64,000 bases of DNA from an uncultured Candidatus Saccharibacteria bacterium. Its GTDB lineage: Bacteria; Patescibacteriota; Minisyncoccia; Phycocordibacterales; DATDWN01. The position numbers were made by a program, and so were the translations under genes. The DNA lies in assembly GCA_964469605.1 (NCBI GenBank), contig CAYXZA010000001.1, forward strand, positions 6,899 through 70,898, in the 5' to 3' direction. The first letter of the stretch is position 1. Each line of letters starts with the position of its first letter. This document shows, piece after piece, positions 8,827 to 56,308 of the stretch. The notes under the pieces are model-generated. The model saw only the letters and a list, made by a program, of their open reading frames with translations. It had not been told where the DNA came from and made no database searches.

Positions 8827-9402
8827 ATGCTTGAATATAACGAAATAACAGAAAGAAAATACATCATATACGAAGGTCAACCTTTTGAGGTCTTATCTTC
8901 TCATGTATTTAGAAAACAACAGAGAAAACCTGTAAATGCAACAAAACTTAAAAACCTAATAACAGGTAAAGTCACAGAAGTTTCTTTTCATCAATCAGAA
9001 AAAGTGCAGGAAGCTGAGATAAATAAAAAGGATGTAAAATACCTTTACAACAACAAAGGTGAATATTGGTTCTGCGAAGTAAATGATCCTAGCAAAAGAT
9101 TTTCAATGAAAGAAGATTCTATGGAAAGTGGTATTAAGTTTATAAAAGCAAACTCAGTTATAACAATACTACTATTTGATGAAAAAATAATCGGAGTAAA
9201 ACTTCCTATCAAAGTTGATCTAAAAGTTACAGAAGCACACGAAGCTGTTAGAGGAAATACAGCCCAGGGTGCAACAAAACAAGTTGTGCTAGAAACAGGA
9301 GTGACAATAAATGTCCCTATGTTTATAAAAGAAGGAGAAATAATAAGAGTCAACACCGAAGATGGGCAGTATGTTGAGAGAGCAATGGGAAATAGTTATT
9401 AA
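8827..9402 (+). CDS. efp: Elongation factor P
   Basis: N-terminal KOW-like segment ...FRKQQRKPVNATKLKNLITGKV... followed by two OB-like domains. Length 191 aa, typical of EF-P. Confidence 0.8.
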   Translation: MLEYNEITERKYIIYEGQPFEVLSSHVFRKQQRKPVNATKLKNLITGKVTEVSFHQSEKVQEAEINKKDVKYLYNNKGEYWFCEVNDPSKRFSMKEDSMESGIKFIKANSVITILLFDEKIIGVKLPIKVDLKVTEAHEAVRGNTAQGATKQVVLETGVTINVPMFIKEGEIIRVNTEDGQYVERAMGNSY

Positions 9403-9455
9403 AAAACACAAAAAGGAAAATATATACAGAGCAGTTTAAGATATATTCCGTAAAA

Positions 9456-9546
9456 GCATAGTATTTAGAGACTTGCGAGCGCGACTGGCACGAGCACGAG
9501 GAATTTTTCAGTAGAAAAATATCCGTGCTCTAAATATTATGCTTTT
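9456..9546. repeat. Nested long hairpin downstream of efp
   Basis: The arms aaaagcatagtatttagag / ctctaaatattatgctttt pair over 18 of 19 positions. They enclose an inner gagcacg/cgtgctc hairpin. The 5' arm motif taaaagcat..tatttagag recurs at 49586. Confidence 0.35.
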
Positions 9547-9573
9547 ATAAGGCAAATACGAGTAGTTTTTTAT

Positions 9574-9725
9574 TTTCAAACGAAGCGAGCGAAATAAGAA
9601 AGTATTCTTTCTTATTTCCGAGTGCAGTGTAGAAAACAAAATATTCCACAGCTTGCTACGGAGATAAACCGTGAGCGAAGCGAACACCCTTTGGGTCCAT
9701 GGCTCTGCCCTGGGGTTTAACACCT
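9574..9725 (+). repeat. Intergenic repeat family 1, copy A (5' module with a 12 bp hairpin plus a 3' ...ggggtttaacacc module)
   Basis: Contains ttttcaaacgaagcgagcgaaataagaaagtattctttcttatttccgag ... gtgagcgaagcgaacaccctttgggtccatggctctgccctggggtttaacacc. Other copies are at 41605, 46734 and 44701 (reverse strand). Confidence 0.5.
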
Positions 9726-9742
9726 TTTATTTTTAAACTTAT

Positions 9743-9940
9743 CTATCTTATTGTATAAGGAATAAGTCCCATAAATCTTGCTCTTTTTACAGCCAAAGCA
9801 AGTTTTCTTTGATTTAAAGCAGTAACACCAGTTCTTTTTCTAGCAATCATTCTTCCGTGTGGGTTTAAGAACTTCTTTAAAAGATCTATGTCTTTAAAAT
9901 CTATGTGATTTATATTATTTTGTGAAAAGTAACATTTCAT
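9743..9940 (-). CDS. rpsR: 30S ribosomal protein S18
   Basis: ARKRTGVTALNQRKLALAVKRARFMGLIPY matches the S18 signature. Sits in a conserved rpsF-ssb-rpsR arrangement. Confidence 0.85.
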   Translation of the reverse strand: MKCYFSQNNINHIDFKDIDLLKKFLNPHGRMIARKRTGVTALNQRKLALAVKRARFMGLIPYTIR

Positions 9941-26909: not shown

Positions 26910-26955
26910 GGTCTTTTTCCTTTCTGCCAGAGGACCATCTTTAATCTTGTTGGAT

Positions 26956-27002
26956 GGTCATAGCCAAAAAATGCCTACTTTAAGCATTTTTTGGCTATGA
27001 CC
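26956..27002 (-). promoter_or_regulatory. Conserved 5'UTR hairpin (19 bp stem) between promoter and start codon of paralog 1
   Basis: ggtcatagccaaaaaatgc-ttaaagta-gcattttttggctatgacc is a perfect inverted repeat. A nearly identical copy is at 29036-29082. Confidence 0.5.
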
Positions 27003-27064
27003 AAGTCTAAAATTAAAATTTGTCCTACTTGGGGGGTTTGGGGGTTGCCCGAATTTCTCATCCA

Positions 27065-27093
27065 ATTATATCATATTTAGATATAAAAGTCAA
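27065..27093 (-). promoter_or_regulatory. Near-consensus sigma70 promoter driving paralog 1
   Basis: Read on the minus strand: TTGACT, a 17 nt spacer, TATAAT. Confidence 0.55.
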
Positions 27094-27121
27094 TAAATAA
27101 ATTTGTAGGATTAAGAAAAGA

Positions 27122-27151
27122 CCCTGCATCTCTGTACAAGCAGATGCAGGG
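27122..27151 (-). terminator. Hairpin terminator after paralog 2
   Basis: The 10 bp stem ccctgcatct/agatgcaggg is followed, on the minus strand, by a tcttttctt T-rich tract. Confidence 0.5.
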
Positions 27152-27207
27152 CCCAAAGGGCTAAGGTCAAAGGGTTCAAGAAGGTCCCAGTGGCTTAGTC
27201 CAAAGAA

Positions 27208-28074
27208 CTAAATTGCGAGAACGGCGGATGGCTGTCGAATGTCCCAGTTGCCCATTAACCAGGACACGTTCCAGCGCCACCGACCCCTGCTCCAAAACAA
27301 GCACAGAACGTAACGGCCACCGACCGAGTCCCGAAGGACTGTGCCGTCAAAGAAGATGTAACGGGTGTTCCAGTTGACCCTCTCCTTCCACGACTCGGGA
27401 ATGAGGTGCTGGTTCTCCCAGAGCGTGAGGAAGATGTCGGCGTCCAAGCGAATGTAGTCCGATTCTTTGAGACGCCTGAGCTTCTCCTCGCCATTCACGT
27501 ACGTCTCGCCGTCCTTCAGCATCGTCACGTGCTGAACCTTCGTCAGGTCCAGTTCGGTGAGTGCGATGGATCGAGTGTCTGTCTCGTCCACCCAGATGTT
27601 CCAACCTTGGCCGATTAATAATGAATTGGGATTGAAGCGACCATGGTTGATTGGGATGATCTTCGACTCGCCGACGATGATCTTTCCACCGTTCTTGAGG
27701 AACGCCGTGAACTGTCTGCCAGCTTCCTTCGGGTTACGGACGATGAAGTCCTGAAGCCCCGAGTTAGCGAAGTCAATCGTTGCCCAATCAGTATTCACAG
27801 CCAGAGTGGCGATAACCTGATGGGATTGGTCAATTTGGCCGATTAATGAATTGGGATTGAAGCGACCATGGTTGATTGGGATGATCTTCGACTCGCCGAC
27901 GATGATCTTTCCACCGTTCTTGAGGAACGCCGTGAACTGTCTGCCAGCTTCCTTCGGGTTACGGACGATGAAGTCCTGAAGCCCCGAGTTAGCGAAGTCA
28001 ATCGTTGCCCAATCAGTATTCACAGCCAGAGTGGCGATAACCTGATGGGATTGGTCAATAGTGATTTGTCCCAT
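27208..28074 (-). CDS. GC-rich island paralog 2 (unknown function) containing an internal 75-aa tandem duplication
   Basis: Residues ~1-76 and ~77-152 are near-identical (IDQSHQVIATLAVNTDW...GRFNPNSL). The C-terminal domain is homologous to paralog 1 (FFDGTVLRDSVGGRYVLCLFWSRGRWRWNV). The start codon is preceded by a strong SD (caaggagatagacaATG). Confidence 0.55.
   Translation of the reverse strand: MGQITIDQSHQVIATLAVNTDWATIDFANSGLQDFIVRNPKEAGRQFTAFLKNGGKIIVGESKIIPINHGRFNPNSLIGQIDQSHQVIATLAVNTDWATIDFANSGLQDFIVRNPKEAGRQFTAFLKNGGKIIVGESKIIPINHGRFNPNSLLIGQGWNIWVDETDTRSIALTELDLTKVQHVTMLKDGETYVNGEEKLRRLKESDYIRLDADIFLTLWENQHLIPESWKERVNWNTRYIFFDGTVLRDSVGGRYVLCLFWSRGRWRWNVSWLMGNWDIRQPSAVLAI
27608..28060. 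repeat. Tandem direct duplication of about 225 bp (two copies, one 3 nt indel) inside paralog 2
   Basis: Plus-strand ORFs 27643-27846 and 27868-28119 translate identically. The DNA at 27608-27835 nearly equals 27836-28060. Confidence 0.8.
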
Positions 28075-28221
28075 TGTCTATCTCCTTGTGTGCAAGAGGG
28101 CGACTGTATGTCGCCGTAGCTGGGAAAGCCCTATATAAATTACTTTTTTGTAAGACTCTTTCAGCTATGGCGATTTTTTTGAAGATCAGATATGTTTAAG
28201 ACTTTGCAAATTTCTTATCGA

Positions 28222-28250
28222 ATTATATCATATTTAGATTAAAAAGTCAA
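28222..28250 (-). promoter_or_regulatory. Near-consensus sigma70 promoter driving paralog 2
   Basis: Read on the minus strand: TTGACT, a 17 nt spacer, TATAAT. Confidence 0.55.
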
Positions 28251-28278
28251 TAAATAAATTTGTAGGATTAAGAAAAGA

Positions 28279-28308
28279 CCCTGCATCTCTGTACAAGCAG
28301 ATGCAGGG
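28279..28308 (-). terminator. Hairpin terminator after paralog 3
   Basis: The same ccctgcatct/agatgcaggg hairpin as at 27122, followed by a T-rich tract. Confidence 0.5.
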
Positions 28309-28364
28309 CCCAAAGGGCTAAGATCAAAGGGTCCAAGAAGGTCCCAGTGACCAGAGCCAAAGTG

Positions 28365-28952
28365 CTACTTGCGACGAACGAACACGAAGCGACTGTAACC
28401 GTCCCAGAGGGTGTCCCACTTACCGTTGCCATTCAACCAACGACCATCCTCGCCGTGTACAACGTGGAACACGTTAGGATAGCCGTCCGAGTCCGAAATC
28501 GGTTTCATCCCGATGAGTAACCACTCTCCCTTCGGCTGGTCCTTGTACTGCAAACGCAGTTGAGGACCAACTTCAGAAGGACAGAGTTCCAGACCGAGTG
28601 AAATCGCTCGCTCGTAGATGTCGCCACGTGTGGCACCATCATTGAAGCCGAGCTCGGCAACGGAGACATTGACGAGGGGGAGCTCCATCTCGGTTTCGCT
28701 CGCCGTGAAGGCGGGCTTGCCGAGAATGTCGTTACCCCAATTCCCGATTTTGAAGCCCCCGTCCTTGAGTGCCTTTCGGAAATCATCGGCGATCTTCAGT
28801 CCCGTGCCAAGCTTCACCGTCTTCCAAATGGTGAACTGTGGAACCGATAGGGTCAGCTCACCCGAGAGGAAGCGGCGAACGCCGTCCATCCCACCGAGCT
28901 TGTTGACTATTGCTTCTATCTGACCAAGAGTTAATTCCCCGTATTTCATCAC
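28365..28952 (-). CDS. GC-rich island paralog 3 (unknown function)
   Basis: GC-rich. Its C-terminal ~40 aa (DGYPNVFHVVHGEDGRWLNGNGKWDTLWDGYSRF) resemble the paralog 1/2 C-terminal motif more weakly. It carries the same promoter, UTR and terminator cassette. Confidence 0.5.
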   Translation of the reverse strand: MMKYGELTLGQIEAIVNKLGGMDGVRRFLSGELTLSVPQFTIWKTVKLGTGLKIADDFRKALKDGGFKIGNWGNDILGKPAFTASETEMELPLVNVSVAELGFNDGATRGDIYERAISLGLELCPSEVGPQLRLQYKDQPKGEWLLIGMKPISDSDGYPNVFHVVHGEDGRWLNGNGKWDTLWDGYSRFVFVRRK

Positions 28953-29035
28953 TCTCTCTCCTTATCGGCTGATTGCCGATGGACTTCCCACTGCCCGTGG
29001 GTTTAGGGTTAGAGCTAGAGGACAACCACATTGGT

Positions 29036-29082
29036 AGTCATAGCCAAAAAATGCCTACTTTAAGCATTTTTTGGCTATGACC
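29036..29082 (-). promoter_or_regulatory. Conserved 5'UTR hairpin of paralog 3
   Basis: agtcatagccaaaaaatgc...gcattttttggctatgacc, a copy of the hairpin at 26956. Confidence 0.45.
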
Positions 29083-29144
29083 AAGTCTAAAATTAAAATT
29101 TGTCCTACTTGGGGGGTTTGGGGGCTTCTGAAATTTCTTATCCA

Positions 29145-29173
29145 ATTAGATCATATTTAGATTAAAAAGTCAA
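29145..29173 (-). promoter_or_regulatory. Sigma70-like promoter driving paralog 3
   Basis: Read on the minus strand: TTGACT, a 17 nt spacer, TCTAAT. Confidence 0.45.
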
Positions 29174-29192
29174 TAAATAAATTCAGAAGATT

Positions 29193-41318: not shown

Positions 41319-41399
41319 AAAATAATATTAACATTTCCACAGATTTTAAACAAAAAAGTTGACTTTTATTGCAAATGTTATTATATTTTTTACGGTATG

Positions 41400-41605
41400 C
41401 TAATTTCGAGAGAAAAGTTCCGGGAACTTCAAATGAAGTTCCCGAAACAAAAGTTCCTTGATGCTCCCCCACGATGGTGGGGGAGCGAAATCATGGAGGG
41501 GCGGGAAATCGCCCCTCAAAAGGAGGTGGAAGAAGAAAAATGACCCGAAGTGGGTCGGGGGTGTCAGACCGCAAGCGACCCCCGACCCACTTGCGGGTTT
41601 TTTAT
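41400..41605. other. GC-rich multi-hairpin element (copy 2 of 2); candidate structured ncRNA ending in a terminator-like hairpin plus T-run
   Basis: Four hairpins: gttccgggaactt/aagttcccgaaac; gctcccccac-gatg-gtgggggagc; gaggggcg/cgcccctc; cgaagtgggtcggggg...cccccgacccacttgcg followed by tttttt. The linker aaaagttccttgat is shared with the element at 8581-8700. Confidence 0.4.
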
Positions 41606-41740
41606 TTTCAAACGAAGTGAGTGAAGTAAGAGAGTAGTCTTTCTTACTTCCGAGCGAGTGCAGGAAAAGATCTCTTTTCAAACGAAGTGAGCGAAGCGAA
41701 CATTCTTTGGGTCCAAGGCTCTGTCTTGGGGTTTAATACC
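41605..41740 (+). repeat. Intergenic repeat family 1, copy B
   Basis: Its hairpin is gaagtaagagag...ctttcttacttc. Relative to copy A (gaaataagaaag/ctttcttatttc) it carries compensatory A-T to G-C changes. The 3' module is gtgagcgaagcgaacattctttgggtccaaggctctgtcttggggtttaatacc. Confidence 0.5.
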
Positions 41741-41760
41741 CTTTTTATTTTTTTAATTTT

Positions 41761-44553: not shown

Positions 44554-44700
44554 TATTATAAATATAACATTTACTTTGAAAATATAAAAAACTTATTAAC
44601 ATAAAATATTTTTTATATTTTCTAAACCCTTTCTCCTATTTGCTCTCTCCACATAGCATAATACAAACCTTTATCTTCCAAAAGACTTTTATGATCACTA

Positions 44701-44770
44701 AATAAAAGGTTAAACCCCAGAGTAGAGCCCTAGACACAAAGGGTGTTCGCCTTGCTCACGGTTTATCTTA
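44701..44770 (-). repeat. Intergenic repeat family 1, copy D (3' module only, reverse orientation)
   Basis: The reverse complement reads ...aaccgtgagcaaggcgaacaccctttgtgtctagggctctactctggggtttaacc. Confidence 0.4.
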
Positions 44771-45268
44771 AATACTTAAATTAAATAAATCTAAAATATA
44801 TTTAGCAAAAGGATCTGCAGATGTTCCATATACAATAACACCCCCTAAAACACCTGTTAAAAATATTAAAATAAAACCTAAAATAGCAAATGTTTTAGTT
44901 AAAAATTGTCTTTCTGATAATTTTGAGAAAAATAATAAAAATTTTCCAAACTTCAAATTAAAATATGATTTTGTATTTAAGAAACTGCAAAATTCCAAAA
45001 ACCCAAGAAAGACAAAAACGAAAGTTGAAAGAGATGCAAAAAGAGAGTGTATTTCTATAATATTTCTATTTTTCCTTACAATATGCTCTGCAATCTCCCC
45101 TGTGTTTAAAGAAGCAAATGCACCCAAAATACCAAAAAATAAAAGAGTTCTTTCTATACTTTTCCTATTTTGAGCAAAAAATCTAGCGGGTAAAATTTTT
45201 ATTAAAGAATAAAGCGAAAGAAAAGCTATTGGAAAATGAACAAAAATCGGATGAATATTGTATTGCAT
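44768..45268 (-). CDS. Hypothetical membrane protein
   Basis: Five to six hydrophobic segments. Confidence 0.35.
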   Translation of the reverse strand: MQYNIHPIFVHFPIAFLSLYSLIKILPARFFAQNRKSIERTLLFFGILGAFASLNTGEIAEHIVRKNRNIIEIHSLFASLSTFVFVFLGFLEFCSFLNTKSYFNLKFGKFLLFFSKLSERQFLTKTFAILGFILIFLTGVLGGVIVYGTSADPFAKYILDLFNLSI

Positions 45269-45448: not shown

Positions 45449-46717
45449 ATGAATACTAAAATAAATTTTGATCCCTATGACTTTTCGCAAACAGAAATAT
45501 CATCTGTTCCTGTTTATTACAAAAATCTTCCTTGGGCAAATTGTATTTTTATTAGAATAGTTTTCAAAGTAGGTGCACTAGACGATCCTATTGGTAAAGA
45601 AGGTTTGGCTCATTTTTTAGAACACATGATGTTTGACGGATCAGAAAGTTTTCCTGATAGAAAATCCATAGTTGAATGGAAAAAAAATATGACACTAAAC
45701 ACTTTCAATGCTTCAACTGGTTTACGGAGAACAGAGTATAACTTAAAATGTATTCCTGAAAATTTTGAGAAAGTAATGACCGATTTAAACAATATAATCT
45801 GGAAACCATTTTTAAAAGAAGAATTTGTGGAAAGTGAAAGACAGGTTATCACCCAAGAATGTTGGCAAAGATATAAAAATGAAAAATTTTTAGCACACCT
45901 AAAAGAAGTGCAAAATATTGTATACCCAAATACAAGATATGGAAAAATAATAATAGCATTTGGTTTTCCAGATACAATATCATCTATATCAAAACAAAAC
46001 TTGAAAGATTTTTATGAAAATAAATATGTAAAAGAAAATATGTTTATTATCTTGACTGGAAAAATAGATGAAGAAAATATAAAGCATCTAAATCTATTTT
46101 TTAAAGATTCAAAAAGTGGTGTGAAAAATAATAGAAATGCAGAGAATATAACAAAACCATCACAAAATAGAATTGAAAAATCATCAAAAGACATAGGCAA
46201 CCCACAAAAACAAACTGAAATATTAAAAATTTTTTATTCAAAACCTTTTGAAAAAAATACCAGCAAGATTTTAATCTGGAGAAATTTGATATATGAAATA
46301 CTTATGGAAAAAATGAGATATGAAAAAAACCTGTGTTATTCATTGTCTTTAAACTATAATGAAACTTCTGAAATGTCATCTTTTTATTTTTTATTAAAAA
46401 CAGATACAAAAAACATAAAAATAGTTGAGGATGAATTTCAATCCATAATCACAGATATTTATAACGGAAAATATGAAGATAAATTTGCAACACAAAAAAG
46501 AATTTATCTAGAAAGAATAATTACAAGTGAGAGACTTTCTGATGACATAGCAGATGATGCACTGAATGATGTATTGTATTTTGGCAAAATAAAACATCTT
46601 CGAGAAACTATAGAAGATGCTTTAAAAGTAGAATTTTCTGATATGCAAGAAATTTCGAAAAAAATCTTTACCAAGGATAGGACTTTTACCAAAATAACAC
46701 TTTCAGAAAATGACTGA
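45449..46717 (+). CDS. M16-family zinc peptidase
   Basis: HFLEHMMFDGS (HxxEH). Confidence 0.8.
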   Translation: MNTKINFDPYDFSQTEISSVPVYYKNLPWANCIFIRIVFKVGALDDPIGKEGLAHFLEHMMFDGSESFPDRKSIVEWKKNMTLNTFNASTGLRRTEYNLKCIPENFEKVMTDLNNIIWKPFLKEEFVESERQVITQECWQRYKNEKFLAHLKEVQNIVYPNTRYGKIIIAFGFPDTISSISKQNLKDFYENKYVKENMFIILTGKIDEENIKHLNLFFKDSKSGVKNNRNAENITKPSQNRIEKSSKDIGNPQKQTEILKIFYSKPFEKNTSKILIWRNLIYEILMEKMRYEKNLCYSLSLNYNETSEMSSFYFLLKTDTKNIKIVEDEFQSIITDIYNGKYEDKFATQKRIYLERIITSERLSDDIADDALNDVLYFGKIKHLRETIEDALKVEFSDMQEISKKIFTKDRTFTKITLSEND

Positions 46718-46733
46718 TTTTATTTTCAAACGA

Positions 46734-46873
46734 AGTGAGCGAAATAAGAAAGTACTCTTTCTTATTTCCGAGCATAGTGTAGAAAACAAAATACTCCATA
46801 GTTTTATTATGGAGTATTTTATAATCTTAATTTATATCATTTAAGGTCAAAAGCTCTGTCCAAGGTTTAATAC
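46734..46873 (+). repeat. Intergenic repeat family 1, copy C (intact 5' module; degenerate 3' module; extra 11 bp hairpin)
   Basis: ttttcaaacgaagtgagcgaaataagaaagtactctttcttatttccgag... then aatactccata/tatggagtatt ... ctctgtccaaggtttaatac. Confidence 0.45.
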
Positions 46874-46878
46874 ATCTC

Positions 46879-49497
46879 TTATTTATTTCCACAAGTTATA
46901 TAACTAATCTTTCCTCTTGTTATAGATCCAACAAAACCAGTTGGAGATATACCATTATCACTTTGAAATCTTTTTACAGCTTGAAATGTTAATATTCCAA
47001 AATAACCAGTTGGTTCTGAATTCAAATAACCTTTAAACTGCAAGAAATCTTGTAAAGCAGAAACTTCTTGGTTTGTTGTAATATCTTTTGATCTGTATCT
47101 AAGATTATTTTGTAAGTTCAAACAAGAACCAGCAGATTGATCCTGTGTATCCACATCACCAACAACAGGGTCATGTTGATTTACAGTTGGAGTTGTTGAT
47201 GGTGTTTGTACAGTAAGTATATTAGCTGAACTTAAAACAGTTAAATAAACTGCACTACTAATAGCTGAACCTTCACCTACTTGAATAGAATGTGATCCAA
47301 TGGAAATGTTTGATGGAACTGTAAATGTTATAGAGGTTGGAGATATAAAACTTGTATTAGACTTAATTGAATTACCATCAATAGAAACATAAGTGTTGTA
47401 GTTAAAATTTGTCCCAGAAACAGTAACTTGACCACCTTGTAAAGCATACATTGGACTTATTGATGAGATTGTTGGAGCTTTTAGGAAATTATCATTTATA
47501 CCTGAAAAATTAGATGAGAGAGTTTCAACAATATTTATAGTAAAGAAATTACTAAGAGGACCAGAACCTTCAACCACTTGAACAGTATGTGATCCAAAAG
47601 AAATATTTGGTGGAAGTATGAATTTAAGAGAAGTCTTTGAAACAACATCAAAAGTTGGCTTGATTACATATCTTCCATTATCAATATAGACATAAGTTTT
47701 ATCACTAAAATTTGTTCCAGAAACATAAACAGTAGATCCTTGTAAAATATTAGATGTTGGACTTATTGAAGATATTGTTGGATTTTGTGAAGCTGAAACA
47801 ACAGTTAAATAAACTGGGTTGCTAAGGGGAAGACCAGATCCTGTCTCACCTACTTGTATAGTATGTGATCCAACAGAAAGATTTGATGGAACTGAAAATG
47901 TTATAGCAGTTGGAGATATAGAATTAGGTGTAATTGTCTGACTTCCATTATTTACAGATATGTAAGTTTTGTTGGTAAAGTTTGTTCCGTAAATATGAAC
48001 TGAACCACCTACAAAAGCTGATGTTGGAGACATTGATGAGATTGTTGGATTTTGTGATGAAACAACATTTAAATTAACCGCATTGCTAAGTGGAAAATTA
48101 GATGCTTTTTCACTAACTTGAACAGTATGAGTACCCATACTAATATTTGATGGAACTACAAAACTAATTGATGTGTCAGAAATCAAAGTTGGAGTAATTG
48201 TTTGTCCGTATGCTCCATCTAAAGCAACAAAAATACCTTGATTGAAATTTGTTCCGTAGATATAAACTAAACTGCCCGGTAAAGCTGATGTTGGAGACAT
48301 TGAAGATATTGTTGGAGGTTGAGGTGAGACAACATTTAAATTAACTATGTTACTAAATGGAAGCACAGATGACAAAACACCAACACTAACAGTATGTGAT
48401 CCAACAGAAAGGTTTGATGGAACTGTAAATTTAAGAGTAGTTGGAGATATAAAATTAGGTGTAATTCTTTGACCGTTACTATCAAAAGCAACGACAGTAT
48501 TATTGGTAAAATTTGTTCCGTAGATATAAACTTCATTTCCTAATAAAACCGATGTTGGACTTATTGAAGATATTGTTGGATTTTGTGAAGCTGAAACAAC
48601 AGTTAAATAAACTGGGTTGCTAAGGGGAAGACCAGATCCTGTCTCACCTACTTGTATAGTATGTGATCCAACAGAAAGATTTGATGGAACTGAAAATGTT
48701 ATAGCAGTTGGAGATATAGAATTAGGTGTAATTGTCTGACTTCCATTATTTACAGATATGTAAGTTTTGTTGGTAAAGTTTGTTCCGTAAATATGAACTG
48801 AACCACCTACAAAAGCTGATGTTGGAGACATTGATGAGATTGTTGGATTTTGTGATGAAACAACATTTAAATTAACCGCATTGCTAAGTGGAAAATTAGA
48901 TGCTTTTTCACTAACTTGAACAGTATGAGTACCCATACTAATATTTGATGGAACTACAAAACTAATTGATGTGTCAGAAATCAAAGTTGGAGTAATTGTT
49001 TGTCCGTATGCTCCATCTAAAGCAACAAAAATACCTTGATTGAAATTTGTTCCGTAGATATAAACTAAACTGCCCGGTAAAGCTGATGTTGGAGACATTG
49101 AAGATATTGTTGGAGGTTGAGGGGTTGTAGTATTTCCAATTGAAAAGACTCCACTTATAGCACCAGTTTGAGATGGTCCTTGAAAATTTACAGTATAAGA
49201 ACCAGCTGGAATATCTGTTGGAACTGTCCAATTAAATTGAGAACTACTTGTATTTATTGAACCTAAATATTTTGGACCATTTACACCAAGACTACGACCA
49301 TAAAGATAAATTGAATAGCCACTTATTGGATTAAAAGAAGAGTCAAAATCCCAACCAGACCACTTGAAACTATATGTCTGTCCTGAAACAAGATTCTCTC
49401 CCCCAGTTGGATATAAAATAGTAAAAGGGCCACCGCCAGCATAGACTGATCCGGAAAACAAAAAACTGAAAATAAAAATGCCTAGTATTTTTTTCAT
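46879..49497 (-). CDS. Surface protein with about 8 IPT/TIG-like repeats and a C-terminal peptidoglycan-binding-like domain
   Basis: A signal peptide is followed by repeated ~85 aa modules (PTISSMSPTSA..G..V.IYGTNF...). The C-terminus VKRFQSDNGISPTGFVGSITRGKI matches the PG-binding motif of the 57-3467 product. Confidence 0.6.
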   Translation of the reverse strand: MKKILGIFIFSFLFSGSVYAGGGPFTILYPTGGENLVSGQTYSFKWSGWDFDSSFNPISGYSIYLYGRSLGVNGPKYLGSINTSSSQFNWTVPTDIPAGSYTVNFQGPSQTGAISGVFSIGNTTTPQPPTISSMSPTSALPGSLVYIYGTNFNQGIFVALDGAYGQTITPTLISDTSISFVVPSNISMGTHTVQVSEKASNFPLSNAVNLNVVSSQNPTISSMSPTSAFVGGSVHIYGTNFTNKTYISVNNGSQTITPNSISPTAITFSVPSNLSVGSHTIQVGETGSGLPLSNPVYLTVVSASQNPTISSISPTSVLLGNEVYIYGTNFTNNTVVAFDSNGQRITPNFISPTTLKFTVPSNLSVGSHTVSVGVLSSVLPFSNIVNLNVVSPQPPTISSMSPTSALPGSLVYIYGTNFNQGIFVALDGAYGQTITPTLISDTSISFVVPSNISMGTHTVQVSEKASNFPLSNAVNLNVVSSQNPTISSMSPTSAFVGGSVHIYGTNFTNKTYISVNNGSQTITPNSISPTAITFSVPSNLSVGSHTIQVGETGSGLPLSNPVYLTVVSASQNPTISSISPTSNILQGSTVYVSGTNFSDKTYVYIDNGRYVIKPTFDVVSKTSLKFILPPNISFGSHTVQVVEGSGPLSNFFTINIVETLSSNFSGINDNFLKAPTISSISPMYALQGGQVTVSGTNFNYNTYVSIDGNSIKSNTSFISPTSITFTVPSNISIGSHSIQVGEGSAISSAVYLTVLSSANILTVQTPSTTPTVNQHDPVVGDVDTQDQSAGSCLNLQNNLRYRSKDITTNQEVSALQDFLQFKGYLNSEPTGYFGILTFQAVKRFQSDNGISPTGFVGSITRGKISYITCGNK
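47753..49122. repeat. Two near-identical ~572 bp direct repeats (47753-48324 and 48551-49122; 798 bp offset) within the IPT/TIG gene
   Basis: Long identical DNA stretches give identical antisense ORF translations, duplicating three IPT modules. Confidence 0.75.
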
Positions 49498-53804: not shown

Positions 53805-53877
53805 GCGCGATTAGCTCAGTTGGTAGAGCAACCCGTTTACACCGGGAAGGTCATAGGTTCGAGTCCTGTATCGCGCA
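53805..53877 (+). tRNA. tRNA-Val (anticodon TAC)
   Basis: GCGCGATTAGCTCAGTTGGTAGAGC-A-ACCCG-TTTACAC-CGGGA-AGGTC-ATAGGTTCGAGTCCTGT-ATCGCGC-A. Confidence 0.85.
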
Positions 53878-53926
53878 CCTTAAACGAACTAAACGGCTTT
53901 GAAAAAGCCGTTTAGTTCGTTTAAGG
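53878..53926. repeat. Near-perfect 23 bp-stem palindrome between tRNA-Val and the left TIR
   Basis: ccttaaacgaactaaacggcttt-gaaaa-agccgtttagttcgtttaagg. Confidence 0.7.
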
Positions 53927-54124
53927 TGCATTTATATTACCAAATCCGAACCTATTTTGAAAATCTATAAAATGGATGAATTTTTGCGAAATATATTTTC
54001 TAGGGAAAGGATTCGCAAAAATTCGGCTAGTGTTTTCTGAAATGTGGACTCGCCCGCCCGCAGAAAGGGGTCTGGGGAATGAATGCGGGCGGGTTTCGGG
54101 TTTTTTGTTTTTGGCGAGGCGGGC
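53925..54124 (+). repeat. Left terminal inverted repeat
   Basis: See the element above. Contains the GC hairpin cccgcccgca...tgcgggcggg. Confidence 0.7.
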
Positions 54125-54508
54125 TTCAAAAGAACTTGCAAAATACCGAATCGTATACTATCATACCCGTATGAGTTTTTCAGTTAAATTTTCCGCAAAT
54201 TACTATTATACCCGCCCTGTGGGACGGTCTTCTTTTTGTTAACTGATTTTTACTAAAAACAGAGCACAAAAGACCGCCCCAAAGGCGGTCTTTTGTTTAT
54301 TACTTACACATTATGATTCTAAAAAAATTACAAACAAATAGCATTTATTATTACGGCTCTTTGCAAGAGACTTGTTTCAAGGTGCCGAAATAATTTTTTT
54401 AAAATTTCGACTCCTCCAACTGGTCTCTTGCGAGACCAGTTTTTATTTGGGTGAAGGAATCTACCCATGCAAGTGATTCCAAAATAGTTCTTTAAAAAGG
54501 AGGAGACC

Positions 54509-55036
54509 ATGAATAAAAAAGTGGTTCTCTTGGCAGGCTTACCTGGTGTGGGTAAGTCAACTCTGGCGCGAAAGATTGCCAACAAAGAGTGTGGCTTGGT
54601 TTTGGACATTGACGAAATTAAAAGAAAGATTGTCGATCCAAAACTCGTCACGTCAACCATTGACCCACCGGAAGTTAGGTGGCGATGTTACGAGGAAGCC
54701 GCGGAAAAGGTTTTCTTTCTCCTTGAAAAAGGAGCGTCTACAATTATTATGGACGAGGTATTTCATTTGGCGATTCTCCGCCAAAAACTGGAAGAACTTT
54801 TCCTTCAAAAAGGAATTGAAGTTTTCTGGTTGGAAGTACGTTGCTCACATGTCGAGGTTGAGCGACGGCTTCGTGAGAAATCTCGAAATGGACATATTCT
54901 CTCGACAGATGAGGCGTTGAAAATGAATCTTCTTTTCGAGGGAATCTTCGAAAGATTTCCTGAAGGAAAGAAAAATCATATCATCTTCAGAAATGAAGCT
55001 GGTTGTGATTTTGAAAAATTGGCATTCAACCCTTAA
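54509..55036 (+). CDS. P-loop NTPase kinase (AAA_33 / polynucleotide-kinase / zeta-toxin-like fold)
   Basis: Walker A VVLLAGLPGVGKSTLARKIA near the N-terminus, a DE Walker-B-like IIMDEVF, and a lid-like RRLREKSRNGH. It is preceded by a canonical SD (aaaaaggaggagaccATG). Confidence 0.6.
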   Translation: MNKKVVLLAGLPGVGKSTLARKIANKECGLVLDIDEIKRKIVDPKLVTSTIDPPEVRWRCYEEAAEKVFFLLEKGASTIIMDEVFHLAILRQKLEELFLQKGIEVFWLEVRCSHVEVERRLREKSRNGHILSTDEALKMNLLFEGIFERFPEGKKNHIIFRNEAGCDFEKLAFNP

Positions 55037-55045
55037 ATGGGTATT

Positions 55046-55088
55046 GAGGGTTGGTGCAGTGGAAACTTGCACCAACCCTCTTTTGTTG
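55046..55088 (+). terminator. Rho-independent terminator after the kinase gene
   Basis: gagggttggtgca-gtggaaact-tgcaccaaccctc followed by ttttgttg. Confidence 0.55.
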
Positions 55089-55126
55089 AATAAAATCTGA
55101 ATTACTAATATAATAAAAATATTCTT

Positions 55127-55840
55127 ATGACTAATACATTACAAAAAATCAAAAATCTTGCTCTAAAAATAGATAACGATATTGCTTTTGGTGGAAAGTC
55201 AAAAGGTAATAAGCATTTGCTTAGAGTTGTTAAGGTGGCAAAATTTCTCGCACAAAAAACTGGAGCAGATTTGTTTATAAGTATAGCTGGAGCGTATTTA
55301 CACGATACTGCCTTACCCTCTGGAAATGACTACAATTACAAAAATAATAAAGAAATAGTAAAAGATTTACTCAAATCTTTTACTATTTCCAAAAAAGAGC
55401 TAGATGGAATAGCGGAGTGCGTGGCTTCTCATGAAGGTACATTTAAGCCAAAAAGTTTAGAAGCAAAAGTTGTTCATGATTCAGATGTTCTTGAAAAAAC
55501 TGGATTATTGGGGATTATTCGTCACACATGGAAATTAACCAATTCGGGAAAGATTAATCATAAAAATATAACGGATAAAGATGTCAAATTAGTTATTGAC
55601 CATATAGATTGGCGTAGAAAAAAATTACAAACACCTATTGCAAAAAAGATTGCAAAATTTTTAACAATACCAATAAATAAAGAGAAAGCAAAAATCATTG
55701 TATCAATATCATCAGAATTAGCTTTCAATAGTGTTGTCACTGAAAAAATAGCTGTAGCTTTACGAAAACATTTAAACAAAAAAGAAAATGAAAAGCTCAA
55801 AGAGCAATTAAATTTAGCTTATTTGAATAAGTTTAAATAA
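55127..55840 (+). CDS. HD-domain metal-dependent phosphohydrolase
   Basis: Full HD pattern: H (NKHLLRV), HD (AYLHDTALP), H (VASHEGTF), H...D (VVHDSDVLEKTG). Confidence 0.7.
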   Translation: MTNTLQKIKNLALKIDNDIAFGGKSKGNKHLLRVVKVAKFLAQKTGADLFISIAGAYLHDTALPSGNDYNYKNNKEIVKDLLKSFTISKKELDGIAECVASHEGTFKPKSLEAKVVHDSDVLEKTGLLGIIRHTWKLTNSGKINHKNITDKDVKLVIDHIDWRRKKLQTPIAKKIAKFLTIPINKEKAKIIVSISSELAFNSVVTEKIAVALRKHLNKKENEKLKEQLNLAYLNKFK

Positions 55841-56038
55841 GCCCGCCTCGCCAAAAACAAAAACCCGAAGCCTGCGCGCATTCCTCCCCAGACCCCTCCT
55901 CCGCGCGGGCGAGTCCGAATTTCAAAAACAGATTAGCCGAATTTTTACGAATCCTTTCCCCAGAAAATATATTTCGCAAAAATTCGTCCATTTTATAGAT
56001 TTTCAAAATAGGTTCGGATTTGGTAATATAAATGCACC
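55841..56038 (-). repeat. Right terminal inverted repeat
   Basis: Reverse complement of the left TIR with scattered mismatches. Confidence 0.7.
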
Positions 56039-56236
56039 AGAATAGAACTTAACGATTTAGAACCTATTTGCAACTCTCGGAGGGAAATCTTCCACAAGTA
56101 AAACTTTTTCGTCAAAAAGTTTTCTCGTGTCCACGACTCGCGACCTAGCTTGCTAGCTGGGTACCCCGCTCCGTCTTTCGATTCCCTCTCGTAAAGCTCC
56201 ACTTTACTCTCGGCACAAAACAGCTTTGCAATTTTG

Positions 56237-56308
56237 TGCTCTCGGAGGGAATCGAACCCCCATCAAGGCCTTAGAAGAGCCCTGCTCTATCCATTGAGCT
56301 ACGAGAGC
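56237..56308 (-). tRNA. tRNA-Arg (anticodon TCT)
   Basis: Reverse complement GCTCTCG-TA-GCTC-AATGGATA-GAGC-A-GGGCT-CTTCTAA-GGCCT-TGAT-GGGGG-TTCGATT-CCCTC-CGAGAGC-A. Confidence 0.75.

Follow-up and report, generated by a model that had tools for sequence, protein, structure and literature searches.

A stretch of 64,000 nt from an uncultured Candidatus Saccharibacteria bacterium (contig CAYXZA010000001.1, positions 6,899 to 70,898; this whole stretch is hereafter called the window) carries a sequence that recurs in the spaces between its genes, which raises the question of what kind of element it is. An earlier note on this DNA had placed four copies at 9574-9725 (copy A), 41605-41740 (copy B), 46734-46873 (copy C) and, on the reverse strand, 44701-44770 (copy D), where the sequence bears them out, and had proposed that they could be elements resembling repetitive extragenic palindromes (REP) or miniature inverted-repeat transposable elements (MITE), terminator modules, or a small RNA family. 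In this work, we found that the copies belong to a previously undescribed family of 100-170-base intergenic elements in many uncultured Parcubacteria genomes of the candidate phyla radiation (CPR), in which one strand folds into a conserved rod-shaped hairpin, and that the family is dispersed in multiple copies, with gain and loss between close relatives. The genomes of CPR bacteria or Patescibacteria, at about 1 Mb, are densely packed and are seen as containing few repeats and little mobile DNA, and to our knowledge very few of their non-coding elements have been described.

The 5' module of the window copies (TTTTCAAACGAAGYGAGYGAA, 21 nt) occurs four times in the window, at 9573, 41605, 41675 and 46723, always on the + strand, with 0.01 occurrences expected from shuffles; the 3' motif GGCTCTNNNNTGGGGTTTAA (GGCTCT-N4-TGGGGTTTAA) matched at 9701(+), 41717(+) and 44710(-), and repeat finding on the window returned the families D7, D13 and I2. 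Among the GTDB representative genomes, which do not include the window's own genome, the 5' module alone matched two, one labelled Patescibacteria and the other a 'Bdellovibrionales' metagenome-assembled genome. For the metagenome and viral collections we used a core pattern that spans the hairpin (CAAACGAAGNGAGNGAA-N16-40-TCCGAG), which matched 103 metagenome stretches, mostly from groundwater and sediment, about five of them chance matches devoid of the fold; no match was obtained in the viral collection. A covariance model made from 75 distinct cores recovered 115 copies in 752 kb of fetched loci (numbered with the prefix L), up to three per 10-15 kb and in both orientations, including diverged copies that the pattern had missed; in the window, it recognised exactly three full copies at 73-74 bits, the next match scoring 13.8 bits. 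Several contigs end inside the element, as expected of a multi-copy repeat. The earlier note would have abandoned its proposal had the copies been confined to this contig with no further covariation; they are clearly present in many contigs, and the covariation described below is strong. No relation to known families emerged: a scan of the whole window against Rfam (release 15) at the gathering threshold returned only tRNAs, with no family reaching the threshold at the copies, four E-value scans of individual copies gave chance-level matches only, and literature searches on the motif sequence, on CPR non-coding RNAs, and on CPR together with REP, MITE or REP-associated tyrosine transposases (RAYT) found nothing relevant. 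Strings resembling 5S rRNA (GAAGUGAAACG, GCGAGAGUAG) were noted; no 5S model matched, and we took the likeness as coincidence.

All members share the same order of parts, S1 - J1 - P2 - J2 - S2 - P3 - S3. The covariation statistics were obtained with 91 distinct cores, using 500 shuffles as well as slid controls. Paired cells amounted to 92.7%, as compared with 79.6% in shuffles, and the 296 double-sided changes observed, against 74 in shuffles, were reached by none of the 500 shuffles (slid controls, 34-80). Further, G.U pairs outnumbered A.C mismatches (62 vs 17), and it is therefore one strand, the + strand of the element, that folds. The same pairs were independently predicted by RNAalifold, including two pairs of the J region that are outside our model. 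These results show that one strand adopts a conserved rod-shaped hairpin with strong covariation.

The closing helix of the rod, P1, is formed by S1, commonly TTTATTnnC, and S2, which reads G-n'n'-AAAA. Its variable pairs covary (A-U 49, G-C 16, U-A 14 and C-G 2; at the next pair, U-A 44 and C-G 40), and in some members it has been replaced as a whole helix (GATCGGC/GCCGAT, CTATAATC/GATTATAG). The hairpin P2 is free in sequence, with double-sided changes in 10 of its 11 pairs. The earlier note had described two compensated positions between the 12-bp hairpins of copies A and C (9591-9602/9607-9618) and that of copy B (41623-41634/41639-41650), and one of these holds: at stem position 4 both arms changed, from A9594-T9615 in A and C to G41626-C41647 in B. 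At position 10 only one arm did, through an A-to-G change that turned A9600-T9609 into G41632.T41641, a pair that stands as G.U or G.T on the + strand and would be C.A on the - strand. J1 and J2, which appear as a large internal loop, form an almost continuous irregular helix in which J1 (AAAC-GAA-G-Y-GA-G) lies opposite J2 (C-GA-G-C-G(N)A-GU). The contacts are A4-U9', C5-G8', (G6.A7', A8.G6'), G9-C5', Y10-R4', (G11.A3', A12.G2') and G13-C1', that is, two 'CGAG/CGAG' tandem G.A modules set between Watson-Crick pairs, and these Watson-Crick pairs covary in diverged copies (A4-U9' is A-U in 80, G-C in 5 and G-U in 2; Y10-R4' is C-G in 65, U-G in 23 and U-A in 4).

In the window, three full copies lie on the + strand and one solitary 3' module on the - strand. 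The boundaries of copy A, 9566-9735, are given by a 91% identical copy in another contig of the same metagenome assembly (L032, JACCDT010672037), as the alignment ends exactly at these positions and the flanks are unrelated. The features are as follows.

9566-9735, + strand: copy A, whole element, boundaries from the L032 match, core 74.4 bits; it lies between the 3' ends of efp (8827-9402, +) and rpsR (9743-9940, -).
9569-9577, + strand: S1 of copy A (TTTATTTTC), the 5' strand of the closing helix P1, with an invariant unpaired A at 9572; from P1 covariation, the conservation profile stopping at -9.
9578-9590, + strand: J1 of copy A (AAACGAAGCGAGC), the 5' side of the irregular helix that contains the two tandem G.A modules; from covarying pairs.
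9591-9618, + strand: P2 of copy A, the 12-bp hairpin gaaataagaaag-tatt-ctttcttatttc; from the family covariation given above.
9619-9631, + strand: J2 of copy A (CGAGTGCAGTGTA), the 3' strand of the irregular helix; from the core alignment and covariation.
9632-9640, + strand: S2 of copy A (GAAAACAAA), the A-rich 3' strand of P1; from P1 covariation.
9641-9724, + strand: 3' module of copy A; a hidden Markov model (HMM) of 3' modules scores 46.5 bits at 9682-9732.
9646-9661, 9686-9696 and 9697-9713: hairpins of this 3' module, ccacag-cttg-ctacgg, accc-ttt-gggt and ccatgg-ctctg-ccctgg, respectively, followed by ggtttaacacc.
9725-9735, + strand: S3 of copy A, the T-run TTTTATTTTTA at the end of the element, complementary to S2 and nearly a repeat of S1.
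41598-41754, + strand: copy B, whole element, with the core at 41598-41673, P2 at 41623-41650, the 3' module at 41696-41741 and the T-run at 41742-41754.
41675-41695, + strand: second, partial 5' module nested in copy B; the fourth occurrence of the 5' module.
46716-46885, + strand: copy C, whole element, with the core at 46716-46792, P2 at 46741-46768 and a decayed 3' module at about 46846-46875.
44700-44770, - strand: copy D, solitary 3' module (agataaaccgtgagcaaggcgaac ... ggggtttaacc, then ttttattt); inverted repeat I2, 88% identical to 9662-9721, HMM score 31.1 bits.

The nested module of copy B was missing from the earlier list of copies, and the conserved 3' end that had been described there (...ggctctg...ggggtttaaYacc) is present and corresponds to the decayed last hairpin of a longer 3' module found in other genomes. 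Copy A separates efp from the rpsR-ssb-rpsF operon, the 3' ends of the two being convergent, and copy B is situated in a tandem (-,-) spacer. Copy C has an M16 peptidase gene on one side and, converging with it from the other, a large repeat-protein gene (46879-49497, -), the stop codon of which is overlapped by the T-rich end of the copy; this copy also has a perfect 14-bp hairpin of its own at 46788-46820. Copy D directly follows the stop codon of the gene at 44768-45268(-), and the covariance-model scan of the window found no core beside it. With a G+C content of 29-36%, the window is rich in AT, and its GC skew is negative over the whole length; the database relatives of its EF-P carry the labels Parcubacteria, Paceibacterota, Zambryskibacteria or Minisyncoccota.

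The surroundings of the copies have features of their own. Directly 5' of copy A, at 9428-9560, there is a long imperfect hairpin with an outer stem of 19 bp (aaaagcatagtatttagag / ctctaaatattatgctttt) and a GC-richer interior, which is not found in the same efp/rpsR spacer of relatives and looks like a second inserted element at the site. Upstream of copy B, the region 41359-41605 comprises a promoter-like TTGACT-17-TATATT (+) and about 200 nt of GC-rich hairpins ending in a terminator (41584-41599 plus T-run) that abuts the copy, a candidate small RNA gene with no Rfam match. Next to copy C, the gene 46879-49497(-) codes for a surface protein of 872 aa, and contains tandem repeats of 267 nt (89 aa) at 47273-49119, some of them 100% identical.

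The 3' half of the element occurs in short and long forms. In the short forms, P1 is followed at once by a free-sequence hairpin, P3, and a T-rich end, for instance GGTAAAAT-CGGG-TTCAATA-CCCG-TTATTT, so the arrangement is one of A-tract, stem-loop and T-tract, like that of a bidirectional terminator. In the long forms, which include the window copies, the P3 loop holds extra hairpins (CCGCGG-CTTG-CCGCGG, a variable hairpin, and CCAGGG-CTTG-CCCTGG-GGTAAATACC), and the 3' module of copy A has homologues in other genomes that read CCGCGG-CTTG-CCGCGG ... CCAGGG-CTTG-CCCTGG-GGTAAATACC. The likeness of S3 to S1 comes from the complementarity of each to S2, and this complementarity is kept in members where P1 is not T-rich, as in L031 and L089 (GATCGG/GATATCGG) and in L076 and L101 (CTATAAT/CTATTTAA). 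Therefore, many members can form either P1 or, alternatively, an extended P3; the S2:S3 pairing was documented by inspection, the automated search being too noisy for quantification. Terminator-like sites were recognised in copy B on the + strand (41728-41742, its last hairpin, with the T-run) and in copy A on the - strand (9662-9645, using the T-run that is the reverse complement of S2), and the ends of the element abut or overlap stop codons in copy C, L001, L076 and L101.

Regarding genomic behaviour, the orientation of the element relative to its neighbouring genes is random, with 14 (+,+), 13 (-,-), 12 (+,-) and 12 (-,+) arrangements. Clustering of 1581 neighbouring open reading frames, carried out in search of a linked protein family, gave only a common family of glycosyltransferase paralogues and duplicate contigs. 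Adjacency to tRNA genes (5-6 of 60 loci) is close to expectation. The possibility that the element is always inserted after a terminator hairpin was discarded, since the upstream 36 nt show no better folding than controls (-5.5 as compared with -5.1 kcal/mol); a clear hairpin abuts the element upstream in only about a dozen of 77 copies.

Comparison with close relatives revealed gain and loss. The efp/rpsR spacer measures 340 bp in the window, and relatives sharing the same recA-efp/rpsR-ssb-rpsF synteny (EF-P 76-91% identical) do not have copy A: the spacer is 46 bp with a plain bidirectional terminator in L109 (EF-P 91% identical), 6 bp in L111 (83%), and occupied by unrelated sequence in L113 and L114 (79% and 76%, respectively). 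The 340-bp spacer is therefore a lineage-specific gain. The M16 peptidase beside copy C has relatives of at most 51% identity, which did not permit an empty-site comparison there, and the comparison of L006 with L046 revealed a plain 39-nt deletion rather than an excision. A further pair of copies occupies the same genomic site in two contigs (L076 5820-5930 and L101 11990-12116), with a terminator upstream and, on the other side, the 3' end of a gene that, from its sequence, we take to be hup (HU). Their flanks are 90-97% identical and S1, J1, J2 and S2 are the same in both, with P2 differing at about a third of its positions (including two fully compensated pairs) and P3 almost entirely, and both stems still pair in either copy. 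This shows that the stems turn over much faster than the flanks while pairing is kept, and the pattern of differences suggests exchange between copies or re-occupation of the site. Most copies are singletons or direct tandems; head-to-head pairs of cores about 12-20 nt apart, similar to REPIN doublets, occur in L064 (5047-5215) and L095 (2847-3008), and a REPIN doublet as the replicating unit was discarded, these being the only two such pairs. In L087 (8745-9166, -), six nearly identical 72-nt units follow one full core in tandem; every unit comprises a constant spacer and, besides the P2 hairpin, the inner halves of both J1 and J2. On its sides, this array has a tRNA gene and a duplicated tRNA fragment. 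Thus, multi-copy dispersal, with several copies per genome, and gain and loss between close relatives are properties of the family. The covariance model constitutes a ready-made annotation tool for CPR genomes, and the element itself can mark strain-level dynamics, probably causes assembly breaks, and offers a concrete object for asking how repeats spread in genomes with almost no recognisable transposases.

What, then, does the element do? Our preferred explanation, which we hold tentatively and at somewhat less than even confidence, is that it is a mobile, non-autonomous, structure-constrained dispersed repeat with a terminator-like hairpin, acting at transcript ends. The conserved rod would be recognised by a trans-acting factor, either a mobilising activity or an RNA-binding protein, and the half composed of A-tract, hairpin and T-tract would act as a bidirectional intrinsic terminator, so that insertion at gene ends or between convergent genes would be tolerated and even useful. 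In the sense direction, the element would be transcribed as the 3' end of a neighbouring transcript, with no promoter of its own. The element probably acts in transcripts, a role as single-stranded DNA (ssDNA) being the alternative, and its mobilisation may proceed via DNA or via RNA. The likeness to bidirectional intrinsic terminators extends from the composition of the 3' half to the location at gene ends or between convergent genes, and to the fact that in the window the element stands in place of the plain terminator that a close relative has in the same spacer; however, such terminators have no need for a conserved upstream rod of 70 nt, and the T-tract is missing in GC-richer members.

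Several observations weigh against this explanation. No terminator-like site was found in copy C, and the GC-richer members (L031, L089, L064, L095) have no T-run after P3; therefore, termination cannot be a universal function of the element. As for mobility, we found neither a recurrent protein family near the element nor a transposase in the other repeat regions of the window that could supply a mobilising enzyme, and the element has no terminal inverted repeats; no clean target-site duplication was evident. TTTTATTTT occurs on both sides of copies A and B; S1, however, covaries with the internal S2 within a helix, so a plain duplication of the target does not describe it. Most of the J1 invariance in the main set was imposed by the search pattern, an ascertainment effect, with the part of J2 that is independent of the pattern (AGTGC) being at least 90% conserved. 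The loops are ambiguous between RNA and DNA: G(CTTG)C, which could favour RNA, was found 32 times in 92 elements and once in controls, and C(GAA)G and other triloops as well as TTTA loops, which are typical of stable DNA hairpins, are likewise frequent. Lastly, transcription of the element is a prediction. From the three options offered by the earlier note, these results retain a dispersed repeat with a covarying single-strand fold and, in many members, a terminator-like hairpin, whereas the REP tag, the terminal inverted repeats of a MITE, the conserved promoter of a small RNA gene and, in copy C, a detectable terminator are all absent, and a RAYT link is not supported. A classical MITE was rejected, as no inverted repeat links the 5' end (TTTATTnnCAAACGAAG) with the reverse complement of the 3' end.

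The strongest competitor, in our judgement rather unlikely, is an ssDNA element recognised by an HUH-type enzyme (a RAYT, an IS200/IS605 TnpA or a relaxase-like protein), in which the rod and S2 would position cleavage at S1 and S3 and the element would move by 'peel and paste', like REP/REPIN or miniatures derived from IS200/IS605. The strand-specific fold, the subterminal hairpin with conserved flanks and no inverted terminal repeats, the many triloops including C(GAA)G, and the complementarity of the left-border S1 and the right-border S3 to the internal S2, seen also in L031, L089, L076 and L101, are as this proposal would have them. The ends of IS200/IS605 and the related palindrome-associated transposable elements (PATEs) have these same properties, namely no terminal inverted repeats, a strand-specific subterminal hairpin and a border complementary to an internal segment, and the left border of the commonest subtype ends in TTAC (AT, GT or TT in others), which matches the TTAC target of IS608. 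However, P1 is a Watson-Crick helix of 5-8 bp, unlike the 4-nt guide/cleavage-site contact of IS608, one hairpin is conserved rather than two, no tnpA or tnpB was found in the element loci, and no orientation bias was evident in these loci, orientation being mixed even within single contigs; in the window, moreover, the folded strand is the C-rich + strand, by GC skew not the lagging-strand template that IS200/IS605 elements prefer.

Genes for Y1 transposases of the 'RayT' type (PF01797) are common in CPR, which favours an enzyme of this kind, and the association was examined across RAYT-like loci and not supported. Within 10 kb, the element was present in only 2 of 7 distinct RAYT-like loci (10-20 kb each), at a distance of 0.6 kb in L019 and of 1.5 kb from a related gene in L116, and in none of L115, L117, L118, L120/L121 and L122; close relatives of the RAYT (75-79% identical; L120, L121, L122) have no element, and no RAYT gene was found in the window or in the other loci, about 75 in number. 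The gene at L019 5930-6604 and its 3684 database relatives are single-copy PF01797 'RayT'-like genes, widespread in CPR among housekeeping genes and with no identified cognate repeat, and the element studied here appears not to be that repeat. The family does resemble REP/REPIN-RAYT systems in being short, multi-copy, intergenic, hairpin-forming, non-coding, located at gene ends and long-lived in a lineage, with occasional inverted doublets (L064, L095). Conversely, REP units are imperfect palindromes of 20-40 nt with a 5' GTAG or CGTC tag and their families are species- or genus-specific, whereas the CPR unit has 70-170 nt, is mostly a singleton, contains a large conserved non-canonical internal helix and has a core conserved over many genera. 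It is also untagged: in the alignment of 93 cores inspected for tags, P2 is flanked by GYGAGN and CGAG, and the GTAG/CGTC tag is absent. REP/REPIN elements have been linked to termination or mRNA stabilisation (PMC3733652, PMC3337134).

The lactis-plasmid motif (RF01742) is the only Rfam model with any resemblance to the element, and the match is weak and reciprocal: RF01742 gives 16.1 bits against a gathering score of 70, so that the element is not a member, and the best match of the CPR model in a lactococcal plasmid locus (L119) is the RF01742 motif itself (14.5 bits, E = 0.012). Read in the register supported by covariation, both have a long hairpin with an A/T-rich closing helix, a tandem-G.A module of the type AAAC-GA(A)/GA-GU, and a second short hairpin within a few nt; the plasmid motif differs in having one tandem-G.A module instead of two, and in occurring once per plasmid, just before mobC. 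The motif lies immediately upstream of or overlaps mobC in 349 plasmids, where an inverted repeat and AAGTGCG come after it, which looks to us like a MOBQ-type oriT. The likeness to a motif located beside mobC in mobilisable lactococcal plasmids, from which an oriT may be deduced, keeps the ssDNA proposal alive; it may equally reflect convergent use of a stable module. The motif at L119 2501-2620 (Lactococcus plasmid NC_008504.1), known as 'lactis-plasmid RNA', is probably an oriT region rather than an RNA gene.

A stand-alone small RNA gene of about 100-170 nt with its own terminator, in which the tandem-G.A rod would serve as a protein- or ligand-binding or catalytic core, appears to us unlikely, and slightly more so than the ssDNA element. 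Functional RNAs are classically recognised by conserved unpaired or non-canonical nucleotides in combination with stems that covary and contain G.U pairs, as in the element; a 3' hairpin with a U-run is present in many members, G(CUUG)C tetraloops recur, the neighbour-independent orientation fits an autonomous gene, and in L045 the element fills the spacer between two tRNA genes of the same strand. Against this, no promoter is shared: nothing is conserved upstream of -9, where the comparison of 79 distinct copies gives an information content of about 0 throughout positions -70 to -12, and several copies begin 0-10 nt after the upstream stop codon. Moreover, synteny of the element is not kept among close relatives, some copies are tandem, nested or truncated, and there is no Rfam match. 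A cis-regulatory leader or riboswitch-like switch, in which P1 (S1:S2) and S2:S3 would be exclusive states controlling termination before a downstream gene, has in its favour that S2 pairs with either S1 or S3, and that an internal-loop core followed by a terminator-like hairpin is the layout of aptamer and expression platform. The observed genomic contexts make it very unlikely, as no more than about half of the copies are followed by a gene of the same strand, the convergent genes next to copies A and C turn their 3' ends to them, and no downstream gene family recurs.

Beyond the preferred explanation of a terminator-bearing mobile repeat, we also considered, as a speculative and improbable proposal, that a new class of functional nucleic acids, conserved across Parcubacteria, has its active core in the rod with its two tandem G.A modules. 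The element may be a structured RNA (protein-binding, ligand-sensing or self-cleaving) in which the alternative pairing of P1 and S2:S3 acts as a switch, or it may be a guide-directed miniature mobile element, in which S2 selects both the insertion site (S1) and its own end (S3) by pairing, and which may need an enzyme family not yet connected with the element. If the rod were a binding or catalytic core, it would represent a new RNA class or a new ssDNA recognition structure, and under either version the reduced CPR genomes would gain their first described dispersed repeat with a function.

Other repeat families were compared by architecture. The bcr1-type repeats of the Bacillus cereus group reportedly have a predicted stable RNA fold and are transcribed. 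They are dispersed intergenic repeats of about 100-400 bp whose copy number varies between strains, and the TTTAT-type motif at their ends, thought to be involved in mobility (PMC6542083), is comparable to the T-rich end motif of the CPR element; they differ in belonging to another host phylum, and in that the T-rich left border of the CPR element sits in a covarying helix, the comparison being one of descriptions. Integron attC sites were ruled out on architecture by sequence inspection. TIGR (Tas-associated; tandem interspaced guide RNA) arrays of CPR and phages consist, in regular order, of variable dual spacers between short conserved box C/D-like motifs, beside a Nop-domain Tas gene; they were rejected for the family, as its copies are solitary with conserved loops and variable stems, and also for the array of L087, whose tandem units are identical and which has no adjacent long open reading frame of the Tas type.

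The window contains other repeats as well. A cluster at 26955-29192 includes two 216-nt units that are 100% identical (27619-28059), repeats of 156-159 nt at 91-92% identity and 47-nt palindromes at 26955 and 29037, with a G+C content of 0.40 as compared with about 0.30 around it and open reading frames without Pfam matches. At 53805-56308, between tRNA-Val and tRNA-Arg, inverted repeats of 128 nt (53909-54036 and 55927-56054, 91% identical) bracket the genes of an AAA_33 ATPase and an HD-domain protein; with a perfect 26-bp hairpin at 53875-53929, this region may be a mobile cassette.

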